Origin: an uncultured Acidimicrobiia bacterium
GTDB taxonomy: Bacteria; Actinomycetota; Acidimicrobiia; Spongiisociales; UBA5794
Direction: 5' to 3'
Length of the DNA: 64,000 nt
Assembly (NCBI GenBank): GCA_963834375.1
Contig: CAWIBM010000002.1
Span: 972,919 to 1,036,918 of the forward strand
Shown: positions 4,444 to 63,930 of the stretch, piece by piece
How positions within the stretch are numbered: position 1 is the first letter of the stretch
Layout: each line of letters opens with the position of its first letter
Made by a program: the position numbers and the translations under genes
Notes under the pieces: generated by a model
Told to the model about the DNA's origin: nothing
The model's database searches: none
The model's input: only the letters and a program-made list of their open reading frames with translations

Positions 4444-5275
4444 GTGGCAGGCGACCTCACCGACATCGGCGGCTTCGACCTGATCGTCGTCGGGGGGACC
4501 CTCGCCGGGCTGTCGCTGGCAGTCAAGGCGCGGGAGGCGGGTCTGGCGCGGGTGCTCGTCATCGAGCCGGACCGAGGCGGTGGCCGCCCCCGAGGTGGTC
4601 GGCCAGCACGCCCTCACCGTCGAGTACCAGGCGACACTCGCCGCGGTCACCGAGCCACCGCGACCGGCGTCGAGGGGTCGCCGACGATCGGTTCGTCGCC
4701 ACCGCAACCGCCGCCGTGCTGGCCGACCGCACCGAGCTGCCCTCCCCGGAGCCCGTCGCTTCGCCATCCCGGCCTCCATCGCCGACCGGGTGCACCTGCT
4801 TCCACCTCGACCTACCGTCGCGGGGTCCGACGTGCTCGTCGTCGGCATCGACGACGGCGTCGCCGAGGAGGCGATCCGCGTGGCCAGCGCCGGCGCCCGG
4901 GTCGTGGTGGCCCTCGGAGGGGCCACCATGGCGGAGTTCTCCCGGCTGGCGTCCCGCAAGCTGCTGCAGGCTGGAGGCGGAGCGCCGGCTCACCATCCTC
5001 TGGGGCGCCACCCCTGTCGCCATCGAGGACCTCGGCGGCTTCCCGATGGTCGACTTCGGCGACCGGAGGACCCCGACGCTCCAGTTCGACCATGTCGTCT
5101 ACCGCATCCCGCCCGGCCACTCTGGTGCACTCACCCGGCGAGGTGGAGTCGGCGGACCGCCGTCTTCGCCATCGGTCCGGCTCCGGTCGAGGGCGAGGCG
5201 GTGCACCTGTCGCCGGGGCAGGCGTGGGACGTCATCCGCAGCCTCCGGTTCCCCGACCTTCCCGAGCCGGTGCCC
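4444..5275 (+). CDS. FAD/NAD(P)-dependent oxidoreductase (thioredoxin-reductase-like fold), frameshifted. May be fused to the downstream FNR
   Basis: 'DLIVVGGTLAGLSLAVKAREAGLARVLVIEPD' is a dinucleotide-binding motif. A second Rossmann segment 'GSDVLVVGIDDGVAEEAIRVASAGARVVVALGG' is present. Several frame changes. Confidence 0.5.
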
Positions 5276-6209
5276 GCATGCGCCGCTGGCCGGGACCGAC
5301 GAGGCGATCGAGGCGTTACGCGCCCAGCACTACAACGCCACCATCACCCGCTTCGACCGCACCCACTCGGACCTCTGGCTGCTCCGGGTCAGGCCGGACC
5401 GGGGCGACACTCGCACCTGGCCGGGCAGTACGCCTCGCTGGGGCTGGGCTACTGGGAGCCGAGGGCGGACGTGGCCCGCGAGCCCAACCTCGACTCGGTC
5501 TGGGACAAGCTGATCCGGCGCTCGTACTCGATCTCCAGCCCCGATCCTCGATCATTCCGGATACCTCGTCCGGACCGGACGACGAGCTGGAGCTCTACAT
5601 CGTGCTGGTGCCGCCCACCGGCGACCGCATCCCCGGGCTGACCCCCCGGTCTGGCGTTGAAGGCCGAAGGCGACCGGATCTACCTCGGGCAGAAGATGGC
5701 GGGGCGCTACACGCTCGCCCACGTCACCGACCCGATGACCCAGGTCGTCTTCCTCGTCGACGGGGACCGGGGAGGCGCCCCACAACGACGATGATCGCCG
5801 AGTTGCTCGGGAAGGGTCACACCGGCGCCATCGGTGTCGGTGGTCTCGGTGCGCTACCGGCAGGACCTCGGGTACGACGCCATCCACCGCCAGCTCGCCG
5901 AGCGCTTCGCCAACTACCACTACCTGCCGGTGGTCACCCGGGACGAGAACGCCCCCAAGCGCTACATCCAGGATCTCATCGAGGACGGCACCATCGGCGA
6001 GGTCCTGCCCGCCGGGCTCGACCCGGCGGTCACCCAGGTGTACGCCTGCGGCAACCCGGCGATGATCGGGCTCCCCGAGGTCGGTGGGGGACGACGCCGA
6101 GCTGCGCTTCCCGGAGCCACGCGGCGTGGCCGAGATCCTCACCGGGCTGGGGTTCACCGTCGACCGGAGAGGCGTGCACGGCAACGTCCACTTCGAGGAG
6201 TACTGGTAG
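5276..6209 (+). CDS. Ferredoxin/flavodoxin-NADP+ reductase (Fpr-type FNR), frameshifted
   Basis: 'ITRFDRTHSDLWLLRV', the FAD motif 'RSYSISS', 'VVFLVDGTGEAP', 'VYACGNPAMI' and the C-terminus 'HFEEYW' (compare E. coli Fpr '...AEHYW'). A 1-nt correction after ATG 5276 gives 'MPLAGTDEAIEALRAQ'. Confidence 0.65.
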
Positions 6210-55392: not shown

Positions 55393-56390
55393 TCATCCGC
55401 GCAATCCCACCACCGATGCCGGGTCGAGCCGTGCTTCGACCCTGCTGCCGACCGGGATGGGGGCGGCGGTGATGCCGACGAGCGTGGTGGCGCCCACGGC
55501 CACCGTCGTGTCCCAATGGCCACCCCGGTAGATCGACGCGGTCACTTCGGCTGAACCGTCCCGCGAGGGCTCGATGGTCACCCCGGTCACCGGGACGAGC
55601 ACGGTGGGGGCACCGCGGCCGAGGCCAGATGGGAGGAGGCCGGCCGTGATCAGCGATGCCGGGTCGAGCACGTTGGGATGGCCGAGGAGGCGGGCGACGA
55701 ACTCGGTGCCCGGGTCCTCCCACAGTCGCTGGGGCGTGCCCAGCGCCGCCACCCTGCCGGCACGGAGGATGCCGACCCGGTCGGCCATGGCGAACGCCTC
55801 CTCGTGGTCGTGGGTGACGTAGATGGCGGTGATGCCCAGCGCGGTGAACAGGGCGCGGGTCTCGGTGGCCAGCCGGTCGCGGAGCTCGCGGTCGAGCGAG
55901 CCAAGGGGCTCGTCGAGCATGACCATCCGCGGCGACGGCGCCAGGGTGCGGGCCAGCGCCACTCGCTGTTGCTCACCACCGCTCAGCCCCGGGATGCGGC
56001 GTTCCCCCAACCCGCTCAACCCGACCAGGTCGAGGACCTCGTCGACGCGGGCGGAGGCGCGCCCGGGTTCCCATCCCTGCATGCGCAGCCCGAAGGCGAC
56101 GTTCTCACCCACGGTGCGATGGGGGAAGAGGGCGTAGTCCTGGAACATGAGGCCGAACCGTCGCCGGTGCGGGGGAGTGACGGTGATGTCGATGCCGTCC
56201 CAGGCCACGGTGCCCCGGTGGGGCCGGTCGAGCCCGGCGATGATGCGAAGGGCCGTCGACTTGCCCGATCCCGACGGTCCCATGACGGCGAGGACCTCGC
56301 CGGTGGCGACGTCGAGGTCGACGTCGACCAGGGCGTCGACACTTCCGAAGCTGATGGCGAGGTCGCGGCAGGCGAGGCTCAGAAGTCGCC
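55393..56390 (-). CDS. ABC transporter ATP-binding protein (thiamine/Fe3+ importer type)
   Basis: 'AVMGPSGSGKST', 'LSGGEQQRVALARTL', 'MVMLDEPLGSLD'. The start is approximate. Confidence 0.8.
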
Positions 56391-58000
56391 ACCTCCCCCG
56401 GGACGGAACCGCTCGATGGCGATCACGGCGAGGGTGGTCAGTGCCATCAGCACCACGGCCAGTGCCATCGCCCGTCCTTCCAACACCTCGCCGGGCCGGG
56501 ACAGCAACCGGAAGATGGCAACCGGCAACGTCGGGGAGTCGGGGCGGGCGATGAAGCTGGTCGCCCCGAACTCGCCCAGCGAGACGGCGAAGGCGAACCC
56601 GGCTCCAACCGCCGCCGCCCGCGCCATCAACGGTCCGTCGACCTCGAGGAACACCCGGCCCGGCGAGGCGCCGAGCGTGGCGGCGGCGTCGCGGAGGCGC
56701 TGCTGGACCTGCCGTAGGACGGGCAGCGAACTGCGCACCACGAACGGGATCGCCACCAGGGCGTGGGCGATCGGGATCAGCCAGATCGACGTGCGCAGAT
56801 CGACCGGGGAGTCCAGGGCGATGAGGAAGCCGAACCCGAGCGGTCACCGCCGAGGCTCCGAGGGGGAGCATCACCAGCGTGTCGAGACCTTGACCGGCTC
56901 GGCGGCCGGCGGTCACCACCACCGACACCACGATCCCGATGACGACGGCGACGGCCGTCGCCAGCGCGGCGAACCGGAGCGAGTTGCCGATCGCCTCGCT
57001 GGGGGCGACGAACAGCCCCGAGGCGGTGTCCCGGGTCGCCAGCCCGGTGAAGTTGGCGATGCCGAAACCGTCGCCGACCTGGAAGGCCCGGGCCGTCAGC
57101 ATGGCGATGGGGAGACCGATGAGCAGCCCGGCAACGGCGAGGTTGCCGCCTACCAGCCACCACGCCTTCCCCCGCGGGCGGATCCGTCGGTCAGCGGGTT
57201 CGGCTCTCAGCTGGGTCGCCATCCGCTGCTGGATCCGGCCGTAGACCAGCAGGGCAACCGTCACCCCGACCAGTTGGACGACGGCGAGGGCCGCCGCCAC
57301 CCGCAGGTCGAGCAGTGCGGTCGCCTGCCGCCAGATCTCGACCTCGAGGGTGGCCAGCCCGATGCCGCCGAGGATCAGGATGATGCCGAAGGAGGTGAAG
57401 GTGAACAGGAACACGATCGACGCCGCCGAGGCGATTGCCGGGGTGAGCAGCGGAAGGGTGACCTCGACCAGGGTCCTCCACCGACCGGCGCCCAGCGTCT
57501 GCGACGCCTCCTCCATGCGGCGGTCCAGCTGCTCCCATGCGGTGCCCACGGTGCGCACCACCACCGCGTAGTTGGCGAACACATGGGCGAGGAGGATGGC
57601 GGGTACGGTCCGGCGCAGGTCGACCCCGAAGGGACCGCCGGGGCCGAGCAGGGCGACGAAGGCGCTCCCGGTGACCACGGTGGGGAGCACGAACGGCACC
57701 ACGGTCGCCGCCATCAGCAGGCGCCGCCCGGGGAAGTCGTAGCGGGCGAACACGTACGCCGCCGGAAGCCCGATCGCCAGCGTCAACGCCGTCGACGCCG
57801 TCGCCTGCCAGGTGGTGAACCAGACGATGCCGAGGAGCGACGGCCGTTGCAAGACGTCCAGCATCGGAGTGCCGCCACCCGAGGACTCGCCGGTGAGGGC
57901 GGTGGCGAATACCGTCACCATCGGGAAGACGAAGAAGTAGCCGAGGAAGGCGAGCGGGACTGCGGTGAGGGCCACCAGGCCCCAGGGTCGACGCCGCGTC
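56379..58000 (-). CDS. ABC transporter permease (two-module ThiP/FbpB-like), one apparent frameshift near 56800
   Basis: Twelve-TM permease with a duplicated 'EEASQTLGAGRWRTLVEVTLP' / 'RDAAATLGASPGRVFLEVDGP' EAA-loop pair. The GTG start overlaps the upstream stop (GTGA). Confidence 0.75.
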
Positions 58001-59057
58001 ACCGCATCAGGTCCGTCCACTCCTGGATCCACGCCTCCCGGTTGGCCTCGATGTCGCCCGGGGGCACCGTGAGCGGGTCGTCGACGCGGGCGGCGTGCTC
58101 CACGAAGACGTCCGGGAGGGTGGTGCCCTCCACCGCCGGGAACACGAACATGTTGAGCGGGATGTCCTCCTGGAAGGTCTCCGACAGCATGAAATCGACG
58201 AGCTGGCGGGCCGCCTCCTCGTGCTCCGTCCCGTCGAGGATCCCGACGAACTCGACCTGGCGGAAGCACCCCTCGGTCATCGACGCCGGTGGGCGCTTCC
58301 GCCGGTGGGACCTCGGCGAAGTACACCTCGGCCGGGGGAGAGCTGGCGTACGACACCACCAGCGGCCGGTCGCCGGTGTCGCTGGTCGGCGGTGAAGGCC
58401 CCGTTGTAGGCCTCCTCCCAACCCGAGGTCACCAGCACGTCGTTGGTGTCGAGCGCCTCCCACCAGTCCTGCCAACCGTCGACGCCGTACTGGGCGATGG
58501 TCCCGAGGAGGAAGGCGAGGCCCGGTGAAGAGGTCGCCGGGTCCTCGACGGCGAGCATGCCTCGGTAGGCAGGATCGATCAGGTCGTCGAGCGTCTCCGG
58601 TGGCGCGACCCTCGGCGGCGGCCAGGGCGGCGACGTCGTAGTTGACGCATACGTCCCCGTAGTCGATCGGGGTCACCCGGTGCTCCGGGTCGAGTTGCAG
58701 CTCCTCGGGGACGCCGTCGACGCCGGGGGCGTCGTAGGGGACGAAGAGGTCGGCGTCGAGGGCCCTGGTGAGAAAGGTGTTGTCCACTCCGAACAGGACG
58801 TCGGCCACGGGGTTGTCAGCGGTGAGGATCGCCTGGTTGAGCACCACGCCGGCGTCCCCACCGGATAGGAGCTCGACGGTGATCCCGGTTTCCGCGGTGA
58901 AGGCCTCCAGGACCTCGTCGGATACCAGGAAGGAGTCGTGGGCCATCAGGGTGATGGACACCGGCCCGCCGGTGGCATCTTCGCCACCGGCGCAGGCGGC
59001 GAACAGCAGGGCAGCGACCACGACCGACCCGACGAAGGCGCGCCCGATCCTCACGAC
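57999..59057 (-). CDS. ABC transporter substrate-binding lipoprotein (thiamine/Fe3+ family), several apparent frameshifts
   Basis: '[23 protein letters not shown]' is a lipobox signal. '[11 protein letters not shown]...' and the C-terminus '...[20 protein letters not shown]' lie in different frames. Confidence 0.65.
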
Positions 59058-59767
59058 CCGGACTCCTCGCCCGCCGGCTCGTGGATCACCAGGAGCGATC
59101 CCTGGCGTACCGTCACCGTCGCCCGCTCCGCGGTGAGCTCGTTGCTCACGCCGCGGGTCGAGCCGGCCTCGAGGACGGCACCGTCGAGCGGCCACCGCAG
59201 CCCGGCCGTGGTCACATCACTGGCAGGCCCGGGGGCGGCGAGCAGCGAGACGAGGTCGCCCGGCGCTCCTTCGACGACGACCTCCCGGCCCGGCCGTGCC
59301 ACCTGCACCTCGGTCGTGCCCACCATCCATCGGATCTCGATGCCGGCATGGCGGCCGGCGGCGACCAGGGCGGCGTTGCCGAGCAGGTGGCTGAGCCGCC
59401 CGCCACCGCCGCCGAGGACGGCGCACTCGGTGAAACCGCCCTCGACCACCCGCTGGAGGGCGAGGTCGAGGTCGGTGCGGTCCTTGTCGACCGGGTGCCG
59501 CTCCACGGCGACACCGTCGGCCTCGGCTGCGGCGAGCCCTTCGGCCGACACCGAGTCGAGGTCGCCGATCAGGATGTCGACGTCGATGCCGGCCGACCGG
59601 GCCGCGTCGAACCCGGAATCGACGGCGACCACCGTGCCCGCGGCGGCGAGCCGCCGCAGCACCGCCCGGTCGACCCCGTCACCGCCGGCGATGAGCACGG
59701 CGAGGCGGCGACGAGCGATCGGAGCCGGGGCCGACGAAGCGGCCGGCAGGGGATTGGTCGTTTCCAC
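59051..59767 (-). CDS. Thiamine pyrophosphokinase
   Basis: Intact 238 aa: 'LIGDLDSV', 'DKDRTDLDLAL', 'GGGGGRLSHLLGN'. First gene behind the TPP riboswitch. Confidence 0.75.
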   Translation of the reverse strand: METTNPLPAASSAPAPIARRRLAVLIAGGDGVDRAVLRRLAAAGTVVAVDSGFDAARSAGIDVDILIGDLDSVSAEGLAAAEADGVAVERHPVDKDRTDLDLALQRVVEGGFTECAVLGGGGGRLSHLLGNAALVAAGRHAGIEIRWMVGTTEVQVARPGREVVVEGAPGDLVSLLAAPGPASDVTTAGLRWPLDGAVLEAGSTRGVSNELTAERATVTVRQGSLLVIHEPAGEESGS

Positions 59768-59771
59768 TCGC

Positions 59772-59888
59772 TCCCTCCGCTGGTGTGATCCAGATCAGGT
59801 TCCACGGGTCGGTGACGTTCGCCTGCGGCGCCGGTCACCCTCTCAGCTCGGCGTTCCCGAGCTCCCCGGGGGTGGGTTGTCCCATTCA
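59772..59888 (-). ncRNA. TPP (THI-box) riboswitch
   Basis: Minus-strand RNA 'GGGGAGCUCGGGAACGCCGAGCUGAGAGGGUGACC...GUGGAACCUGAUCUGGAUCACACCAGCGGAGGGA' carries the CUGAGA and ACCUGAUCUGGAU...ACCAGCG...GGGA hallmarks. Its 3' GGAGGGA overlaps the RBS of the TPK GTG. Confidence 0.85.
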
Positions 59889-59912
59889 GTGTAGCCGGGC
59901 CGTTCGGCGGGG

Positions 59913-59992
59913 CCCCGATGAGAGCGCGAAAAACGACCTGATGTCATCCCTTGACAAGACGACATCATTATGACATCATTACGACATCAGAA
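59913..59992 (+). promoter_or_regulatory. AT-rich promoter/operator: TTGACA plus three direct GACATCAT repeats at 11-bp spacing and one inverted copy
   Basis: 'cctgATGTCATcccTTGACAagacGACATCATtatGACATCATtacGACATCAGaa' in a ~70% GC genome. Seen directly. Confidence 0.6.
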
Positions 59993-60020
59993 CAGCCACA
60001 CCGAGATGTCAGGAGTCGAC

Positions 60021-60152
60021 ATGCTGTGGTACAACAACCCCGACGGCATCACCGCCACCCACCTGGCCACCATGGCCAAGCGGACCGCCACGGCCGAGCG
60101 CCGGCGCCTGATGCGCCTGGTCGACGGCGGCGACGCCACCAGTCGGCGATAG
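60021..60152 (+). CDS. Small ORF (44 aa), hypothetical. Possibly a leader peptide
   Basis: 'MLWYNNPDGITATHLATMAKRTATAERRRLMRLVDGGDATSRR'. First ORF downstream of the operator. Weak evidence. Confidence 0.3.
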   Translation: MLWYNNPDGITATHLATMAKRTATAERRRLMRLVDGGDATSRR

Positions 60153-60192
60153 ACCCGTCGCCGGGCGCAGGACACGAGAGGAACGGATACGC

Positions 60193-60636
60193 GTGGACAC
60201 GAGGAGCATCATCAGCGGCATCGAAGCGGCGCTGGCCGACCAGCTCGCCCTCGCCGGTGGAGACCCGGTGGTTGCCGCCGCCGGCGAGGCCCTCGTCGCC
60301 GCCCTCCGCCCGGCGCTGAGCTCGGCGGTCATGGAGCTCGCCGAGCAGGCCGCCCTCGAGGTCGGTGCCCAGATTCCGGAGCACCAGGTCGAAGTCGTGC
60401 TCAGAGAGGGCGATCCGCACCTGGTGGTCCGCGCCGAGACCGGTGTCGAGTCGTTCAGTACCGAGGACCTCGATGCGCGGATGACCGTGCGCCTCCCGCC
60501 CCGCCTCAAGAGCGAGCTGGAGCTGGCCGCCCGGTCGGCCGGCGACTCGATCAACGCCTATGTCATTCGTGCCCTCGCCGCCAAGGGAACCAGCGCCAAG
60601 CCGGGCAAGCGGGTCACCGGGACCTTCGAGACGTGA
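60193..60636 (+). CDS. Ribbon-helix-helix (HicB-antitoxin-like C-terminus) domain protein
   Basis: The C-terminal 'RMTVRLPPRLKSELELAARSAGDSINAYVIRALAA' is a CopG/Arc/HicB-type RHH. The ~100-aa N-terminal domain has no recognised family. Intact 147 aa. Confidence 0.6.
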   Translation: MDTRSIISGIEAALADQLALAGGDPVVAAAGEALVAALRPALSSAVMELAEQAALEVGAQIPEHQVEVVLREGDPHLVVRAETGVESFSTEDLDARMTVRLPPRLKSELELAARSAGDSINAYVIRALAAKGTSAKPGKRVTGTFET

Positions 60637-61400
60637 GTGAGCGCAAGGAGCGGTTCGAGGTCGGCACCTCGGTTCGGATCGAGGCGGCCACCAGCTCCGG
60701 TGACATCAGCGCCCGACCCGGGGATGCCGGCGAGGTTCTGGTCACGGTCAAGGGCCCCGGCGCCGACGACTACCAGATCACCCAGCACGGTGACACCATC
60801 CGGGTACTCCCCGAGAACACCAGGGTGTTGCGCCGGTTCAGCACCGCCGAGGTCTTCCTCACCACACCACCGGGAGCTTCGCTGCACCTCACCGCCGCCA
60901 GCGGGGACATCTCCGTGCAGGCTCCCGCAGAGGACGTCGAAGCCACTGCGGCCTCCGGCGAGATCAGGGTCGGCTCGGTTTCGGGCGCCGGGCGGCTCCG
61001 CACCGCCTCCGGCGACATCCAGGTCGACTCCGTAGGCGGGCGCCTGTTCGTCGACAGCGCGTCGGGGGATGTACGGGTCGGCCGCGTCGGGAGCGACATG
61101 GCCGCCCACTCGGCGTCCGGCGACATCTCCGTCGACTACGCCGCCGGAGCGGTCGACGTCAACACCGCCAGCGGTGACCTCCAGGTTCTCCACGTCGACG
61201 GCGACGACGTCCGGGTCAAGACGGTCAGCGGCGACGTGCGGCTGGGGATCCCTCCCCGGCGGACACTGGAAGTCGAGGTGCAGACCCTGTCGGGGGATGT
61301 ACGCAACCGGCTCCCCACGGGGGATGGCTCGCCTCCAGAGAAGCGGGTCGTCCTCACCGTGAAGACCCTCTCCGGCGACATCACCCTCCACGGCATCTGA
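60633..61400 (+). CDS. DUF4097-family beta-strand repeat protein
   Basis: Intact 255 aa with ~10 repeats of 'SGDI.V' ('ASGDISVQA', 'ASGEIRVGS', 'ASGDIQVDS', 'ASGDVRVGR', 'VSGDVRLGI', 'LSGDITLHG'). Confidence 0.75.
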   Translation: MSERKERFEVGTSVRIEAATSSGDISARPGDAGEVLVTVKGPGADDYQITQHGDTIRVLPENTRVLRRFSTAEVFLTTPPGASLHLTAASGDISVQAPAEDVEATAASGEIRVGSVSGAGRLRTASGDIQVDSVGGRLFVDSASGDVRVGRVGSDMAAHSASGDISVDYAAGAVDVNTASGDLQVLHVDGDDVRVKTVSGDVRLGIPPRRTLEVEVQTLSGDVRNRLPTGDGSPPEKRVVLTVKTLSGDITLHGI

Positions 61401-61418
61401 CGCCGGCGGCGGACCCGA

Positions 61419-62222
61419 TCAGCGCCGAGCGGCGAAGACGGCGGCGTAGGCGATATGGCCGAAGAACGTGCCGGTGTCGACCCGGCGGTGCGCTTCGGCC
61501 TTGAGCGCCCGCGCGGTGTCGTCACCGATGCGTCCGGCGCCGGCGAGCTGGTCCGCCCCGCGCTCGACCAGGGTCAGCATGTAGGCGGGCTCCGTTGACT
61601 CCACGTAGCCGTAGCTCCGGGAGGTGGTTGCCTCGAACCCGGCTTCGGTGACAAGGGTGGGAAGGCGTCGCACCAGCCAGCGGTCGTGCACCAGGTAGGC
61701 GACGATCGCCTCGACACAGGGTTGGAGCGGGTCGAAATCGCCGGTGGCGACGGTGGTGGTTGCGTAGTCGCCGTCGAACACCACGAGCACGCCGTCCCGA
61801 TCGAGCACCCGGTGTGCTTCGCGCAGCGCCCTCTCCGGGCCGGGGATGTGGCAGAGGGTGGTGTGGAACACCACGACGTCGAACGAACCGTCCTCGTACG
61901 GCAGCGCGCGGGCGTCGCCGACGTCGAACATCAGGTTGTCGAAGCCGGTGCTCAGCTCGCCGGCCTTGGCGACGAACGTCGGGGATGGGTCGACACCGGT
62001 GACCGCGGCCTCGGGAGCGTGCTCGGCGATCGCCCGGGAGACCGCCCCGGTACCGCTGCCCACCTCCAGCAGCCGGGCGCCGTCGCCCGGTGCCAGCTCG
62101 GCGAGGTACGAGTCACGCATCGCCTTCTGACGGGGATCGGCGGCGCGCAGCTCGAGGACTCGGGCCAGCTCCTCCAGCACCGCCTGGTCCGCCTCGGCGA
62201 TGGTGGCGTAGACGTCGGGCAT
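61419..62222 (-). CDS. Class I SAM-dependent methyltransferase
   Basis: 'LLEVGSGTGAVSRAIAE' (motif I) and 'FDVVVFHTTLCHIP'. Confidence 0.8.
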   Translation of the reverse strand: MPDVYATIAEADQAVLEELARVLELRAADPRQKAMRDSYLAELAPGDGARLLEVGSGTGAVSRAIAEHAPEAAVTGVDPSPTFVAKAGELSTGFDNLMFDVGDARALPYEDGSFDVVVFHTTLCHIPGPERALREAHRVLDRDGVLVVFDGDYATTTVATGDFDPLQPCVEAIVAYLVHDRWLVRRLPTLVTEAGFEATTSRSYGYVESTEPAYMLTLVERGADQLAGAGRIGDDTARALKAEAHRRVDTGTFFGHIAYAAVFAARR

Positions 62223-62317
62223 GGCGAGACACTCCAGGTCACGGGATCGCCAGGCTACGCCGCCAGTGGCGGATTGGAGTAGGTTTGCGGCCCGGTCGCA
62301 CCGGGGAGCTACAGCCC

Positions 62318-62779
62318 ATGGACATGCCGGACGACATGCGCGCCTACAACCGACAGGTCATCGAGGAGTTCCGCGCCAACGACGGGATTCTCGGACCCCC
62401 GTTCGCCGGCGACTCGACCCTGCTCCTGACCACGAAGGGAGCCAGGACGGGCCGGTCCCACACCGTCCCGATCATGTTCAAGGAGGACGGCGACCGCTTG
62501 CTGGTGATCGCCTCGGCCTCGGGGGCACCCCGCCATCCCGATTGGTACCGCAACCTCGTGGCGTATCCGGAGGTGGCCGTGGAACGCGGCGCCGACCGGT
62601 TCGACGCGGTTGCCCGTACCGCCGAGGGGGACGAGCGGGACCGCCTCTGGAATGAGCTGCTGGCGACCCATCCCTTCTTCGCCGATCACCAGGCCCAGGT
62701 GACCCGGCAGATCCCGCTGGTGCTCCTCGAGCGTCCCGGCAGGTCTCGCCGCCGCAGTGGGATTCCTGAACCCGAGTGA
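62318..62779 (+). CDS. Deazaflavin (F420H2)-dependent nitroreductase-family protein (Ddn-like)
   Basis: 'LLLTTKGARTGRSHTVPIMF...GDRLLVIASASGAPRHPDWYRNLVAYPEVAVE' is the Ddn/PNPOx-like split-barrel signature. Confidence 0.75.
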   Translation: MDMPDDMRAYNRQVIEEFRANDGILGPPFAGDSTLLLTTKGARTGRSHTVPIMFKEDGDRLLVIASASGAPRHPDWYRNLVAYPEVAVERGADRFDAVARTAEGDERDRLWNELLATHPFFADHQAQVTRQIPLVLLERPGRSRRRSGIPEPE

Positions 62780-63930
62780 GACTCATCGTCACCGCATTCG
62801 TGACACTCGACGGAGTCATCGAAGCTCCCGGGTTCGACGAACATCGGGATGGCAAGAACGCCTGGGCACTCCGGATTCAGAACGAGGACGATGAGGAGTA
62901 CAACACGGCGCAGGTCTTCGATGCCGATGCCTTCCTCCTCGGCCGGAAGACGTACCAGATCTGGGCCGCCTTCTGGCCACTCGCCGAGCAGGCCGACCTC
63001 ACCGCAACCGGTGCCGAGAAGCTCGCCAGGCGCGTCAACGAGATCCCGAAGTACGTCGTCTCGCGAACGTTGACCAGCGCCGATTGGAGCAACACCACCC
63101 TCATCGCCGGTGATGTCGCCGCTGAGGTCATCCGCCTGAAGGAACAGGGAGACGGTGACCTGGTGGTATACGGCAGCGCAGACCTCGTCGACACCTTGTT
63201 GGAGCAGGATCTCATCGACGAGTACCGCCTGCTCGTCTATCCGATCGTCCTGGGCAGCGGGAAGCACCTGTTCCGCGACGGGATCGACCTGCACCATCTG
63301 CGCCTGGTCGGCACACGGGTCTTCAGCTCCGGTGTCGTCCTGCTCACCTACCAGCCGCAGCGGGAAGTTCCAACAAGCCGATACGAGGTCGAATTCGCCT
63401 GGACCCAGGAGCAGGTGCGCTCGCTCCAGGCCGCCGAGGACTTGAACCGGGTCCTGGCCACCGTGTTGTTCACCGATCTGGTCGACTCCACCAAGCGGGC
63501 GGTCGATCTCGGTGACCGCGCCTGGCGTCGTCTCATCGACCGTCATGACGAGGTGGCGCGTTCCGAGGTGAGCCGTTGGACGGGCCGGTTCATCAAGAGC
63601 ACCGGAGACGGGGTGCTCGCCACATTCGACACGCCGACCAGGGCACTGCGCTGTGCCTTCGATCTGCGGCAAGCACTCGTTCGCATCGGGCTCGAGATGA
63701 GGGCGGCCATCCACACCGGCGAGATCGAGTTGCGCGACGACGACATCGGAGGCGTAGGCGTCCACGTCGCTGCCCGTGCCCTTGGGATGGCCGATGCGAA
63801 TGAGGTCGTGGTCACCCGCACGGTTCGGGATCTCGCCACCGGGACCGATCTGGGTTTCGCACCCAAAGGCTCGGTGAGCCTGCGCGGGATCCCCGGACGG
63901 TTCGAGTTGTTCGAGGCGTCACTCGGCTAG
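62776..63930 (+). CDS. Dihydrofolate-reductase-like (RibD C-terminal domain) / class III nucleotidyl cyclase (CHD) fusion protein
   Basis: Intact 384 aa. The N-terminal 'MRLIVTAFVTLDGVIEAPG...GRKTYQIWAAFWP...LVVYGSADLVDTLLEQDLIDEYRLLVYPIVLGSGKHLF' is DHFR-family. The C-terminal 'LATVLFTDLVDSTKRA...FIKSTGDGVLATF...VHVAARA...LRGIPGRFELFE' is a CHD. Confidence 0.8.
   Translation: MRLIVTAFVTLDGVIEAPGFDEHRDGKNAWALRIQNEDDEEYNTAQVFDADAFLLGRKTYQIWAAFWPLAEQADLTATGAEKLARRVNEIPKYVVSRTLTSADWSNTTLIAGDVAAEVIRLKEQGDGDLVVYGSADLVDTLLEQDLIDEYRLLVYPIVLGSGKHLFRDGIDLHHLRLVGTRVFSSGVVLLTYQPQREVPTSRYEVEFAWTQEQVRSLQAAEDLNRVLATVLFTDLVDSTKRAVDLGDRAWRRLIDRHDEVARSEVSRWTGRFIKSTGDGVLATFDTPTRALRCAFDLRQALVRIGLEMRAAIHTGEIELRDDDIGGVGVHVAARALGMADANEVVVTRTVRDLATGTDLGFAPKGSVSLRGIPGRFELFEASLG

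Follow-up and report, generated by a model that had tools for sequence, protein, structure and literature searches.

A conserved in-phase operator on the promoter of a probably autoregulated ribbon-helix-helix/Toastrack operon in Acidimicrobiia

Proteins with a Toastrack domain (DUF4097) are widespread and, in the literature searched, understood mainly by inference. The domain was defined by Ravi et al. 2024, mSystems (PMC11237479), who devote one sentence to an actinobacterial operon of a ribbon-helix-helix (RHH) factor, a Toastrack protein and an ATP-binding cassette (ABC) transporter, for which no operator, N-terminal domain or mechanism is given. A second described arrangement is the operon lltR-lmo0600-lmo0601 of Listeria monocytogenes, encoding a PadR repressor, a DUF1700 protein and a DUF4097 protein, in which the repressor mainly regulates its own tricistronic operon (PMC6624303). 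Here we describe a cassette of three genes and its operator at positions 59,913 to 61,400 of a 64,000-nucleotide (nt) stretch from an uncultured Acidimicrobiia bacterium (contig CAWIBM010000002.1), the whole of which is called the window in the following. The AT-rich repeats in front of this cassette are a real and widely conserved operator on the promoter of a three-gene operon, encoding a protein of 43 amino acids (aa), an RHH regulator and a Toastrack protein, and the operon is probably negatively autoregulated. Its features, with spacings in base pairs (bp), are as follows.

59939-59946, minus strand (inverted): flanking operator box TGATGTCA, 8/8 match, 21 bp 5' of box 1
59951-59956, plus strand: -35 hexamer TTGACA of the cassette promoter (promoter scan), with cTTGACA at least 80% conserved across 77 loci
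59960-59967, plus strand: operator box 1, CGACATCA, inside the promoter spacer; cross-locus consensus TGACATCA
59971-59978, plus strand: operator box 2, TGACATCA, coinciding with the extended -10 (TG-n-CATCAT)
59974-59979, plus strand: -10 hexamer of the extended -10 (promoter scan)
59982-59989, plus strand: operator box 3, CGACATCA, covering the predicted transcription start
60004-60011, minus strand (inverted): flanking operator box AGATGTCA, 7/8 match, 22 bp 3' of box 3
60021-60152, plus strand: gene for a conserved 43-aa protein (MLWYNNPD...RRRLMRLV...), preceded by AGGAG
60193-60636, plus strand: gene for a 147-aa regulator with an N-terminal domain and a C-terminal RHH
60633-61400, plus strand: gene for a 255-aa soluble DUF4097/Toastrack β-helix protein, whose GTG start overlaps the RHH stop (GTGA) by 4 nt

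Like the operon mentioned by Ravi et al., the window has an RHH gene adjoining a Toastrack gene. In contrast to it, ABC ATPase and permease genes are missing and a convergent methyltransferase gene follows the DUF4097 gene, while related Acidimicrobiia loci carry udk or other genes at this place. Also different are the extra 43-aa gene upstream, the adjoining thiamine (thi) operon and the absence of membrane-like segments: for the described operon a membrane-anchored Toastrack protein would be expected, and no transmembrane-like hydrophobic segment was found in any of the three cassette proteins. Homologues of the window's regulator do head RHH-DUF4097-ABC ATPase-permease operons in Streptomyces and Tsukamurella, and the cassette is a variant of these operons without the transporter genes and with an additional small gene. 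The Listeria operon also encodes its repressor together with a DUF4097 protein and is a precedent for an autoregulated repressor-Toastrack operon, but its repressor is a PadR-type winged helix protein, its middle gene encodes a multi-pass membrane protein, and neither shows a sequence relationship to the regulator or small protein of the window. With LiaF/LiaG/VraT-type proteins of envelope-stress systems the window's Toastrack protein shares the DUF4097 fold, LiaG being its best NCBIfam match, well below the cut-off (64 bits vs 285). Unlike them it has no LiaI-LiaF-TM or PspC membrane domain, and no PspA/LiaH, PspC, LiaI-LiaF-TM or LiaRS-type two-component system was found among the conserved neighbour clusters or Pfam-annotated contexts.

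The RHH repressors Arc, MetJ (8-bp met boxes), CopG and omega (heptads in direct or inverted orientation) bind short symmetric boxes lying in phase on promoters. The window's regulator resembles them in its matches to Arc, CopG, AmrZ and TacA profiles and in the short symmetric in-phase boxes over its promoter; it differs in carrying an 80-residue N-terminal domain without significant match among solved structures, in the box TGAYRTCA at 11-bp spacing and in its obligate Toastrack partner gene. With HicB antitoxins it shares the two-domain layout with a C-terminal RHH and the name given by automated annotation. The N-terminal fold of HicB is β-rich, RNase H-like or double-stranded-RNA-binding-domain-like, and binds HicA, whereas in the window's protein no such fold was found, no adjacent HicA gene is evident and the locus lies in chromosomal synteny.

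A first, sequence-only reading of the window had singled out an AT-rich stretch with a consensus -35 hexamer, three direct 8-mers at one helical turn and one inverted copy upstream, and had proposed them to be an operator. The stretch indeed has a local GC content of 0.446 compared to 0.704 for the window, the three 8-mers lie at exactly 11 bp and the inverted copy at 59939. To this we can add a fifth box at 60004 that had gone unlisted, and the terms direct and inverted have to be refined, as the 8-mer TGAYRTCA is pseudo-palindromic and direct and inverted copies differ only at the two central bases. Since the five boxes (59939, 59960, 59971, 59982 and 60004) are spaced by 21, 11, 11 and 22 bp they lie roughly on one face of the helix. 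In-phase box pairs at 11 bp occur only twice in the 64 kb, both times here, compared to a mean of 0.08 after shuffling, and GACATCA is present in 14 copies in the window vs 6.7 expected, four of them within 51 bp. The boxes are embedded in the sole promoter-like site found by the promoter scan between 59700 and 61600 (TTGACA, 17 bp, CATCAT with upstream TG; 10/12 matches), and this placement puts box 1 into the spacer, makes box 2 the extended -10 and sets box 3 over the expected start, which we place at about 59986. The predicted 5' untranslated region is then approximately 35 nt long, with the 60004 box overlapping the Shine-Dalgarno sequence AGGAG (60011-60015) of the small gene. An Rfam scan (E <=1, 58500-62500) gave no RNA element in this leader, the only match being a thiamine pyrophosphate (TPP) riboswitch on the minus strand. 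The close relative L003 also carries the flanking box equivalent to TGATGTCA at 59939. On the minus strand, this outer inverted box and box 1 (59939-59967) form a 12-pair hairpin followed by GGTCGTTTTT that was scored terminator-like and is probably a by-product of the box arrangement.

In order to see how far the operator extends beyond the window we compared it with related loci. For the RHH protein about 100 close relatives were found, the majority of them in Acidimicrobiia metagenome-assembled genomes (MAGs), the best genome match being an uncultured Acidimicrobiia bin with 97% identity. A DUF4097 homologue lies directly 3' of the RHH gene in 78 of 80 loci, often overlapping it, and the other two loci end at contig edges. 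Counting boxes with at least 7/8 matches within the 260-nt upstream region of the 80 loci, at least two boxes were found in 75 and an in-phase pair at 11 bp in 72, in comparison to four such pairs in the other 575 kb. Both checks proposed with the sequence-only reading, for the RHH-DUF4097 pairing and for the operator in other genomes, therefore gave positive answers. The box-aligned consensus from 77 of 81 loci reads cTTGACA-nnn-TGACATCA-tTA-TGACATCA-Taa-TGAyrTCA. Its most conserved box is box 2 with >90% per position, the orientation of box 3 varies between genomes (direct or inverted), and a fourth box two turns downstream lies over the ribosome-binding site in the window's clade and over the start codon of the small gene (ATGATGTCA) in Ilumatobacteraceae.

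The family reaches far beyond these relatives: a profile search gave 563 cluster representatives at E <=1e-10, and a profile of a distant branch matched >5,000 proteins, several of them named ‘toxin-antitoxin system HicB family antitoxin’ by NCBI. In this distant branch the DUF4097 gene follows the RHH gene in 4/4 loci, one of them labelled Gaiellaceae by NCBI, and neither an upstream small open reading frame (ORF) nor a thi operon is present. The RHH start codon is here directly preceded by a pair of TGATGTCA boxes at a distance of 11 bp (e.g., in the Gaiellaceae MAG) with TTGACA ahead, a layout that predicts a leaderless transcript. As the boxes are kept in distant loci without the small ORF or the thi operon, they travel with the RHH-Toastrack pair and not with its neighbours. 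We also scanned metagenome contigs blindly for the box pair and examined 80 matches, mostly of low GC, among the matches listed. At a GC content of at least 0.63, 11 of 16 among the matches listed precede an RHH homologue, at a distance of 29-30 nt or 188-233 nt, and the scan supports an enrichment in high-GC contigs rather than exclusivity. A literature search with the box sequence returned only unrelated primer and eukaryotic matches.

Of the computational arguments for the operon's own RHH protein as the binder of the boxes, the strongest comes from a covariation between protein and box. Throughout the TGAYRTCA branch the residues R96, T98 and R100 of the predicted DNA-contacting strand do not vary. 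The place of T98 is taken by N in Streptomycetaceae (Streptomyces, Streptantibioticus, Embleya), where the strand is AR[VI]N[LF]RLP and the three boxes, spaced by 11 bp and abutting the RHH start codon, read TGGYGCCA. Counts of exact boxes by the residue at position 98 are given below.

Residue 98 = T: 85 loci, 168 exact TGAYRTCA boxes, 3 exact TGGYRCCA boxes
Residue 98 = S: 3 loci, 7 exact TGAYRTCA boxes, 1 exact TGGYRCCA box
Residue 98 = N (Streptomycetaceae): 11 loci, 1 exact TGAYRTCA box, 27 exact TGGYRCCA boxes

Both halves of the box change alike, at positions 3 and 6, in agreement with one box being read by an RHH dimer of two-fold symmetry. Together with the boxes travelling with the RHH gene this covariation supports the earlier suggestion of an RHH repressor, and the operon's own RHH protein is most likely the one that binds. 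As a separate observation, repeats of the type TGGCAYCA, placed at roughly helical intervals, form a second array in Streptomyces sp. SAT1 (L207, 2740-2830), where they lie some 200 nt 5' of the main operator of the RHH-DUF4097-ABC operon.

The regulator itself has its RHH at residues 95-132, with the strand A95-R96-M-T98-V-R100-L-P, and the β-strand-helix-helix is detected by RHH profiles as well as in the structure model. Pfam scans gave a match to HicB (an RHH-type model; E 1.4e-6) and sub-threshold matches to FitA-like, NikA and TacA; the profile of the regulator matches TacA/KacA (E 2.6e-4) as well as Arc, CopG and AmrZ. In the AlphaFold model (mean predicted local distance difference test score, pLDDT, 83, rising to about 90 for residues 1-80) two helices (3-19 and 25-60) are followed by a β-hairpin (64-81), and a flexible linker connects this part with the RHH, whose helices lie at 103-115 and 120-132. 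A Foldseek search of the model against the PDB returned nothing at E <=1e-3 and no HicB entry among the 50 best matches shown, resemblance being confined to the RHH part (Arc, AtaR, NikA, VapB, CdbA). The N-terminal domain had been called unclassified before, and this still holds for its helix-helix-β-hairpin arrangement. The accompanying label of a HicB-antitoxin-like protein is not supported: as the Pfam match covers only residues 96-128 and no HicB is found among the structure matches shown, the name reflects the RHH motif alone. Two side observations concern this family. In a single database protein, P0178 (514 aa), the N-terminal domain of the regulator family (residues 1-96) is joined to a region that by eye resembles an MscS-type mechanosensitive channel and an SRPBCC-type domain, which may point to a membrane link or may have arisen by chimeric assembly. 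In L219 (64-765) and L220 (316-1008) the RHH gene is preceded by an ORF of approximately 85 aa (…VWRERRRDV…) that continues into it in frame, giving gene calls of 230 aa; the usual RHH start can be recognised by an internal GTG provided with a ribosome-binding site, and TGAYRTCA boxes lie upstream.

These observations suggest the following model. The operon would be transcribed from the sigma-70-type promoter (TTGACA, 17-bp spacer, extended -10 TGaCATCAT), whose spacer, -10 and start are covered by three TGAYRTCA boxes one turn apart and flanked by two further in-phase boxes. One RHH dimer is predicted to bind each box, inserting R96, T98 and R100 of its strand into the major groove, and adjacent dimers on the same DNA face would bind cooperatively, possibly with the aid of their N-terminal domain of helices and β-hairpin, and block RNA polymerase. 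The start codon of the Toastrack gene overlaps the stop codon of the regulator gene, and for this reason the Toastrack protein is expected to be made in step with the regulator and the two probably act together, the Toastrack protein being either a co-repressor or a signal-receiving scaffold that releases the regulator. The 43-aa protein might be a third, lineage-specific partner. The autoregulated module that the sequence-only reading had considered is thus supported as probable by the conserved boxes on the cassette promoter and the covariation with residue 98.

Several points weigh against this model. RHH binding and repression of the operon are predictions from sequence comparison, and part of the conservation of box 2 may be promoter function as the box coincides with the -10. 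The covariation traces to essentially one evolutionary split, Streptomycetaceae vs the rest, and loci from Nonomuraea (S98) and Tsukamurella (SRTTLRLP) show mixed boxes. Among the matches listed in the metagenome scan, 69 of the 80 examined box pairs are not beside an RHH gene, most of them being of low GC and looking like chance. One high-GC contig, L114, carries TTGACA-g-TGACATCA-ctg-TGATGTCA-ct-ATG at about 1040-1080, directly before a gene for an MFS-type transporter, and an RHH gene is not present in the vicinity; this site could be a second target of an RHH-Toastrack regulator or a coincidence, and the boxes may have other binders or targets. Finally, the role suggested for the Toastrack protein has its basis in analogy and in the overlapping start and stop codons.

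As expected from the earlier reading, the third gene encodes a DUF4097 protein, matching PF13349 at E 1.3e-24 over nearly the whole profile (positions 4-246 of 247). A sequence search returned no solved relatives. In a single-sequence model residues 80-255 form regular strands (pLDDT 85-97), and its top Foldseek matches are the ‘putative adhesin’ β-helix structures 3JX8, 3LJY, 3LYC, 3PET and 4OPW with a probability of up to 0.99 and weak E values (~5e-3). The last of these was named as a Toastrack exemplar by Ravi et al. 2024 (PMC11237479). Full-length DUF4097 match and β-helix fold together place the protein in the Toastrack family.

In most loci the promoter and the RHH gene are separated by a short ORF that has a ribosome-binding site. 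Many Acidimicrobiia loci share the motif M[LMIV]W[YT]NNP[ED]…RRR.L[ML]RL, and in Ilumatobacteraceae it reads MSPFFxxPEFIA…DRVRRLRQ. Since its length is constant at 43 aa in nine genomes, the ratio of nonsynonymous to synonymous substitution rates (dN/dS) is mostly <1 and public annotation calls it as a gene, the ORF is a real coding gene specific to the Acidimicrobiia branch and not the mere leader that had been offered as one of two options, the other being a toxin-like peptide. Scans with Pfam, NCBIfam and PADLOC gave no match for the small protein, which also lacks a hydrophobic segment, and a database search with the peptide gave only four close relatives. A longer reading of 60 aa starting at 59970 was rejected in favour of the start at 60021, as its first codon falls within the operator, 5' of the predicted transcription start, and lacks a Shine-Dalgarno sequence. 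Three distant-branch loci without the upstream small ORF have an ORF of 45-50 aa directly 3' of the DUF4097 gene (L082, 5303-5440; L083, 5270-5410; L084, about 5270-5425), with a basic N-terminus and the ending W..(L/I)..RP.

On the other side of the operator the cassette is flanked by thiamine genes.

59754-59878, minus strand: TPP riboswitch, 59.4 bits, above the gathering score (Rfam)
55393-59767, minus strand: divergent thiamine operon for a pyrophosphokinase and the solute-binding protein, permease and ATPase of an ABC importer

About 43 of 81 loci carry the thi operon, with the divergent TPP riboswitch confirmed in 11 of 17 sampled ones, and a uridine kinase gene (udk) lies downstream in 29 loci. 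With these conserved housekeeping flanks the synteny is chromosomal and vertically inherited. The window's RHH protein had no match in 72,556 plasmids and the cassette none among the PADLOC defence models. In the window permease and ATPase form one ORF of 988 aa, and in L081 they are separate genes. Further downstream, at 62776-63930 on the plus strand, lies an ORF of 384 aa whose C-terminal half is by eye class III nucleotide cyclase-like (…FTDLVDST…GDGVLATF…), joined to an unrelated N-terminal domain.

Three other explanations have to be weighed against an autoregulated operon. The boxes might be bound by another, unlinked regulator, or might merely reflect lineage-specific promoter architecture with the RHH protein acting elsewhere. 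This would fit the coincidence of box 2 with the extended -10, the exact box pairs found away from RHH genes in metagenomes and the high-GC site in front of the MFS transporter gene. We nevertheless consider it unlikely, as the boxes accompany the RHH-Toastrack pair through different neighbourhoods and classes, as the box sequence changes along with residue 98 of the RHH strand, and as the RHH protein is the only DNA-binding protein that Pfam and NCBIfam scans found encoded in the cassette. Box 1 is in addition conserved despite its position in the promoter spacer, the sequence of which is normally not conserved. Even less probable is an operator mainly serving the divergent thiamine operon, by which control at the protein level would be added to that of the riboswitch. 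The TPP riboswitch begins only approximately 60 bp from the outermost box and the divergent arrangement recurs among the sampled loci, but the core boxes lie over the plus-strand promoter, the likely thi -10 (TACACT) is found elsewhere, at 59889-59894, and the boxes are kept in loci without the thi operon; we regard this as the most remote of the three.

The third explanation, only slightly less remote, had been raised in the sequence-only reading and takes the cassette for an atypical toxin-antitoxin system, in which a HicB-like RHH antitoxin would be autorepressing and would counteract toxicity of the DUF4097 protein or of the 43-aa peptide. Type II toxin-antitoxin systems typically carry an operator on their promoter, and so does the cassette. 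The RHH DNA-binding domain with its Pfam HicB match, the name that NCBI gives to relatives and the 4-nt overlap of the RHH and DUF4097 genes would also agree with it. Against it stand the confinement of the HicB match to the RHH motif and the helix-helix-hairpin of the N-terminal domain, which has no significant match among solved structures, those of HicB included. Furthermore there is no room for a HicA-sized gene between the flanking genes, and a HicA gene is not evident among the neighbours (43-aa protein, DUF4097, thiamin pyrophosphokinase, methyltransferase), of which not all short ORFs were searched with a HicA profile. That no HicA-like toxin is visible had been noticed before and agrees with the DUF4097 gene as partner in 78 of 80 related loci. 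Conserved synteny, the lack of plasmid and PADLOC matches and the position of the pair ahead of ABC-exporter genes in Streptomyces and Tsukamurella argue in the same direction. In the literature searched no Toastrack toxin is reported and relatives are described as LiaG/LiaF-type signalling or scaffold partners. We therefore hold a toxin-antitoxin system with DUF4097 as effector to be quite improbable.

The autoregulated operon remains our preferred explanation, and the cassette is a conserved actinobacterial regulator-Toastrack module and most probably not a toxin-antitoxin pair, called “HicB antitoxin” through its DNA-binding motif alone. No description of the operator, of the covariation between residue 98 and the box, of the N-terminal domain or of the small protein was found in the literature searched, nor a statement that the name ‘HicB antitoxin’ rests on the RHH motif alone. 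This puts in question the annotation “HicB family antitoxin” carried by members of a family of thousands, which for the protein described here covers the RHH motif only. The module gives access to Toastrack proteins through an operator and promoter that are defined, a recognition residue that can be predicted and a minimal three-protein version open to reconstitution. Going one step further, RHH-Toastrack pairs in general might constitute a large uncharacterised actinobacterial signalling device, in which each pair would have a dedicated RHH repressor, controlled by a soluble β-helix Toastrack protein as the sensor of a ligand or partner; we put this forward tentatively, as a serious possibility rather than an expectation. 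If it is true, it would concern >5,000 database proteins mostly named HicB antitoxins, would in Streptomyces often guard exporter genes beside antibiotic gene clusters, and in the form of the Acidimicrobiia a recruited 43-aa protein would stand where other forms have the transporter. With residue 98 reading box positions 3 and 6 as an operator code, the system would then be directly testable and re-programmable.

One such cluster is found in Streptomyces lunaelactis, where an RHH-DUF4097 pair on pSLUN1 (L221, 2501-3963), known as Lun1/Lun2, marks an edge of the lunaemycin gene cluster and lies before ABC transporter genes. Knowledge of the operator could help to explain or engineer the export linked to this cluster. 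Lun1 and Lun2 are listed as ‘unknown’ in the lunaemycin cluster, which according to PMC9866976 contains another DUF4097 gene (Lun27), next to DrrA-type ABC genes.

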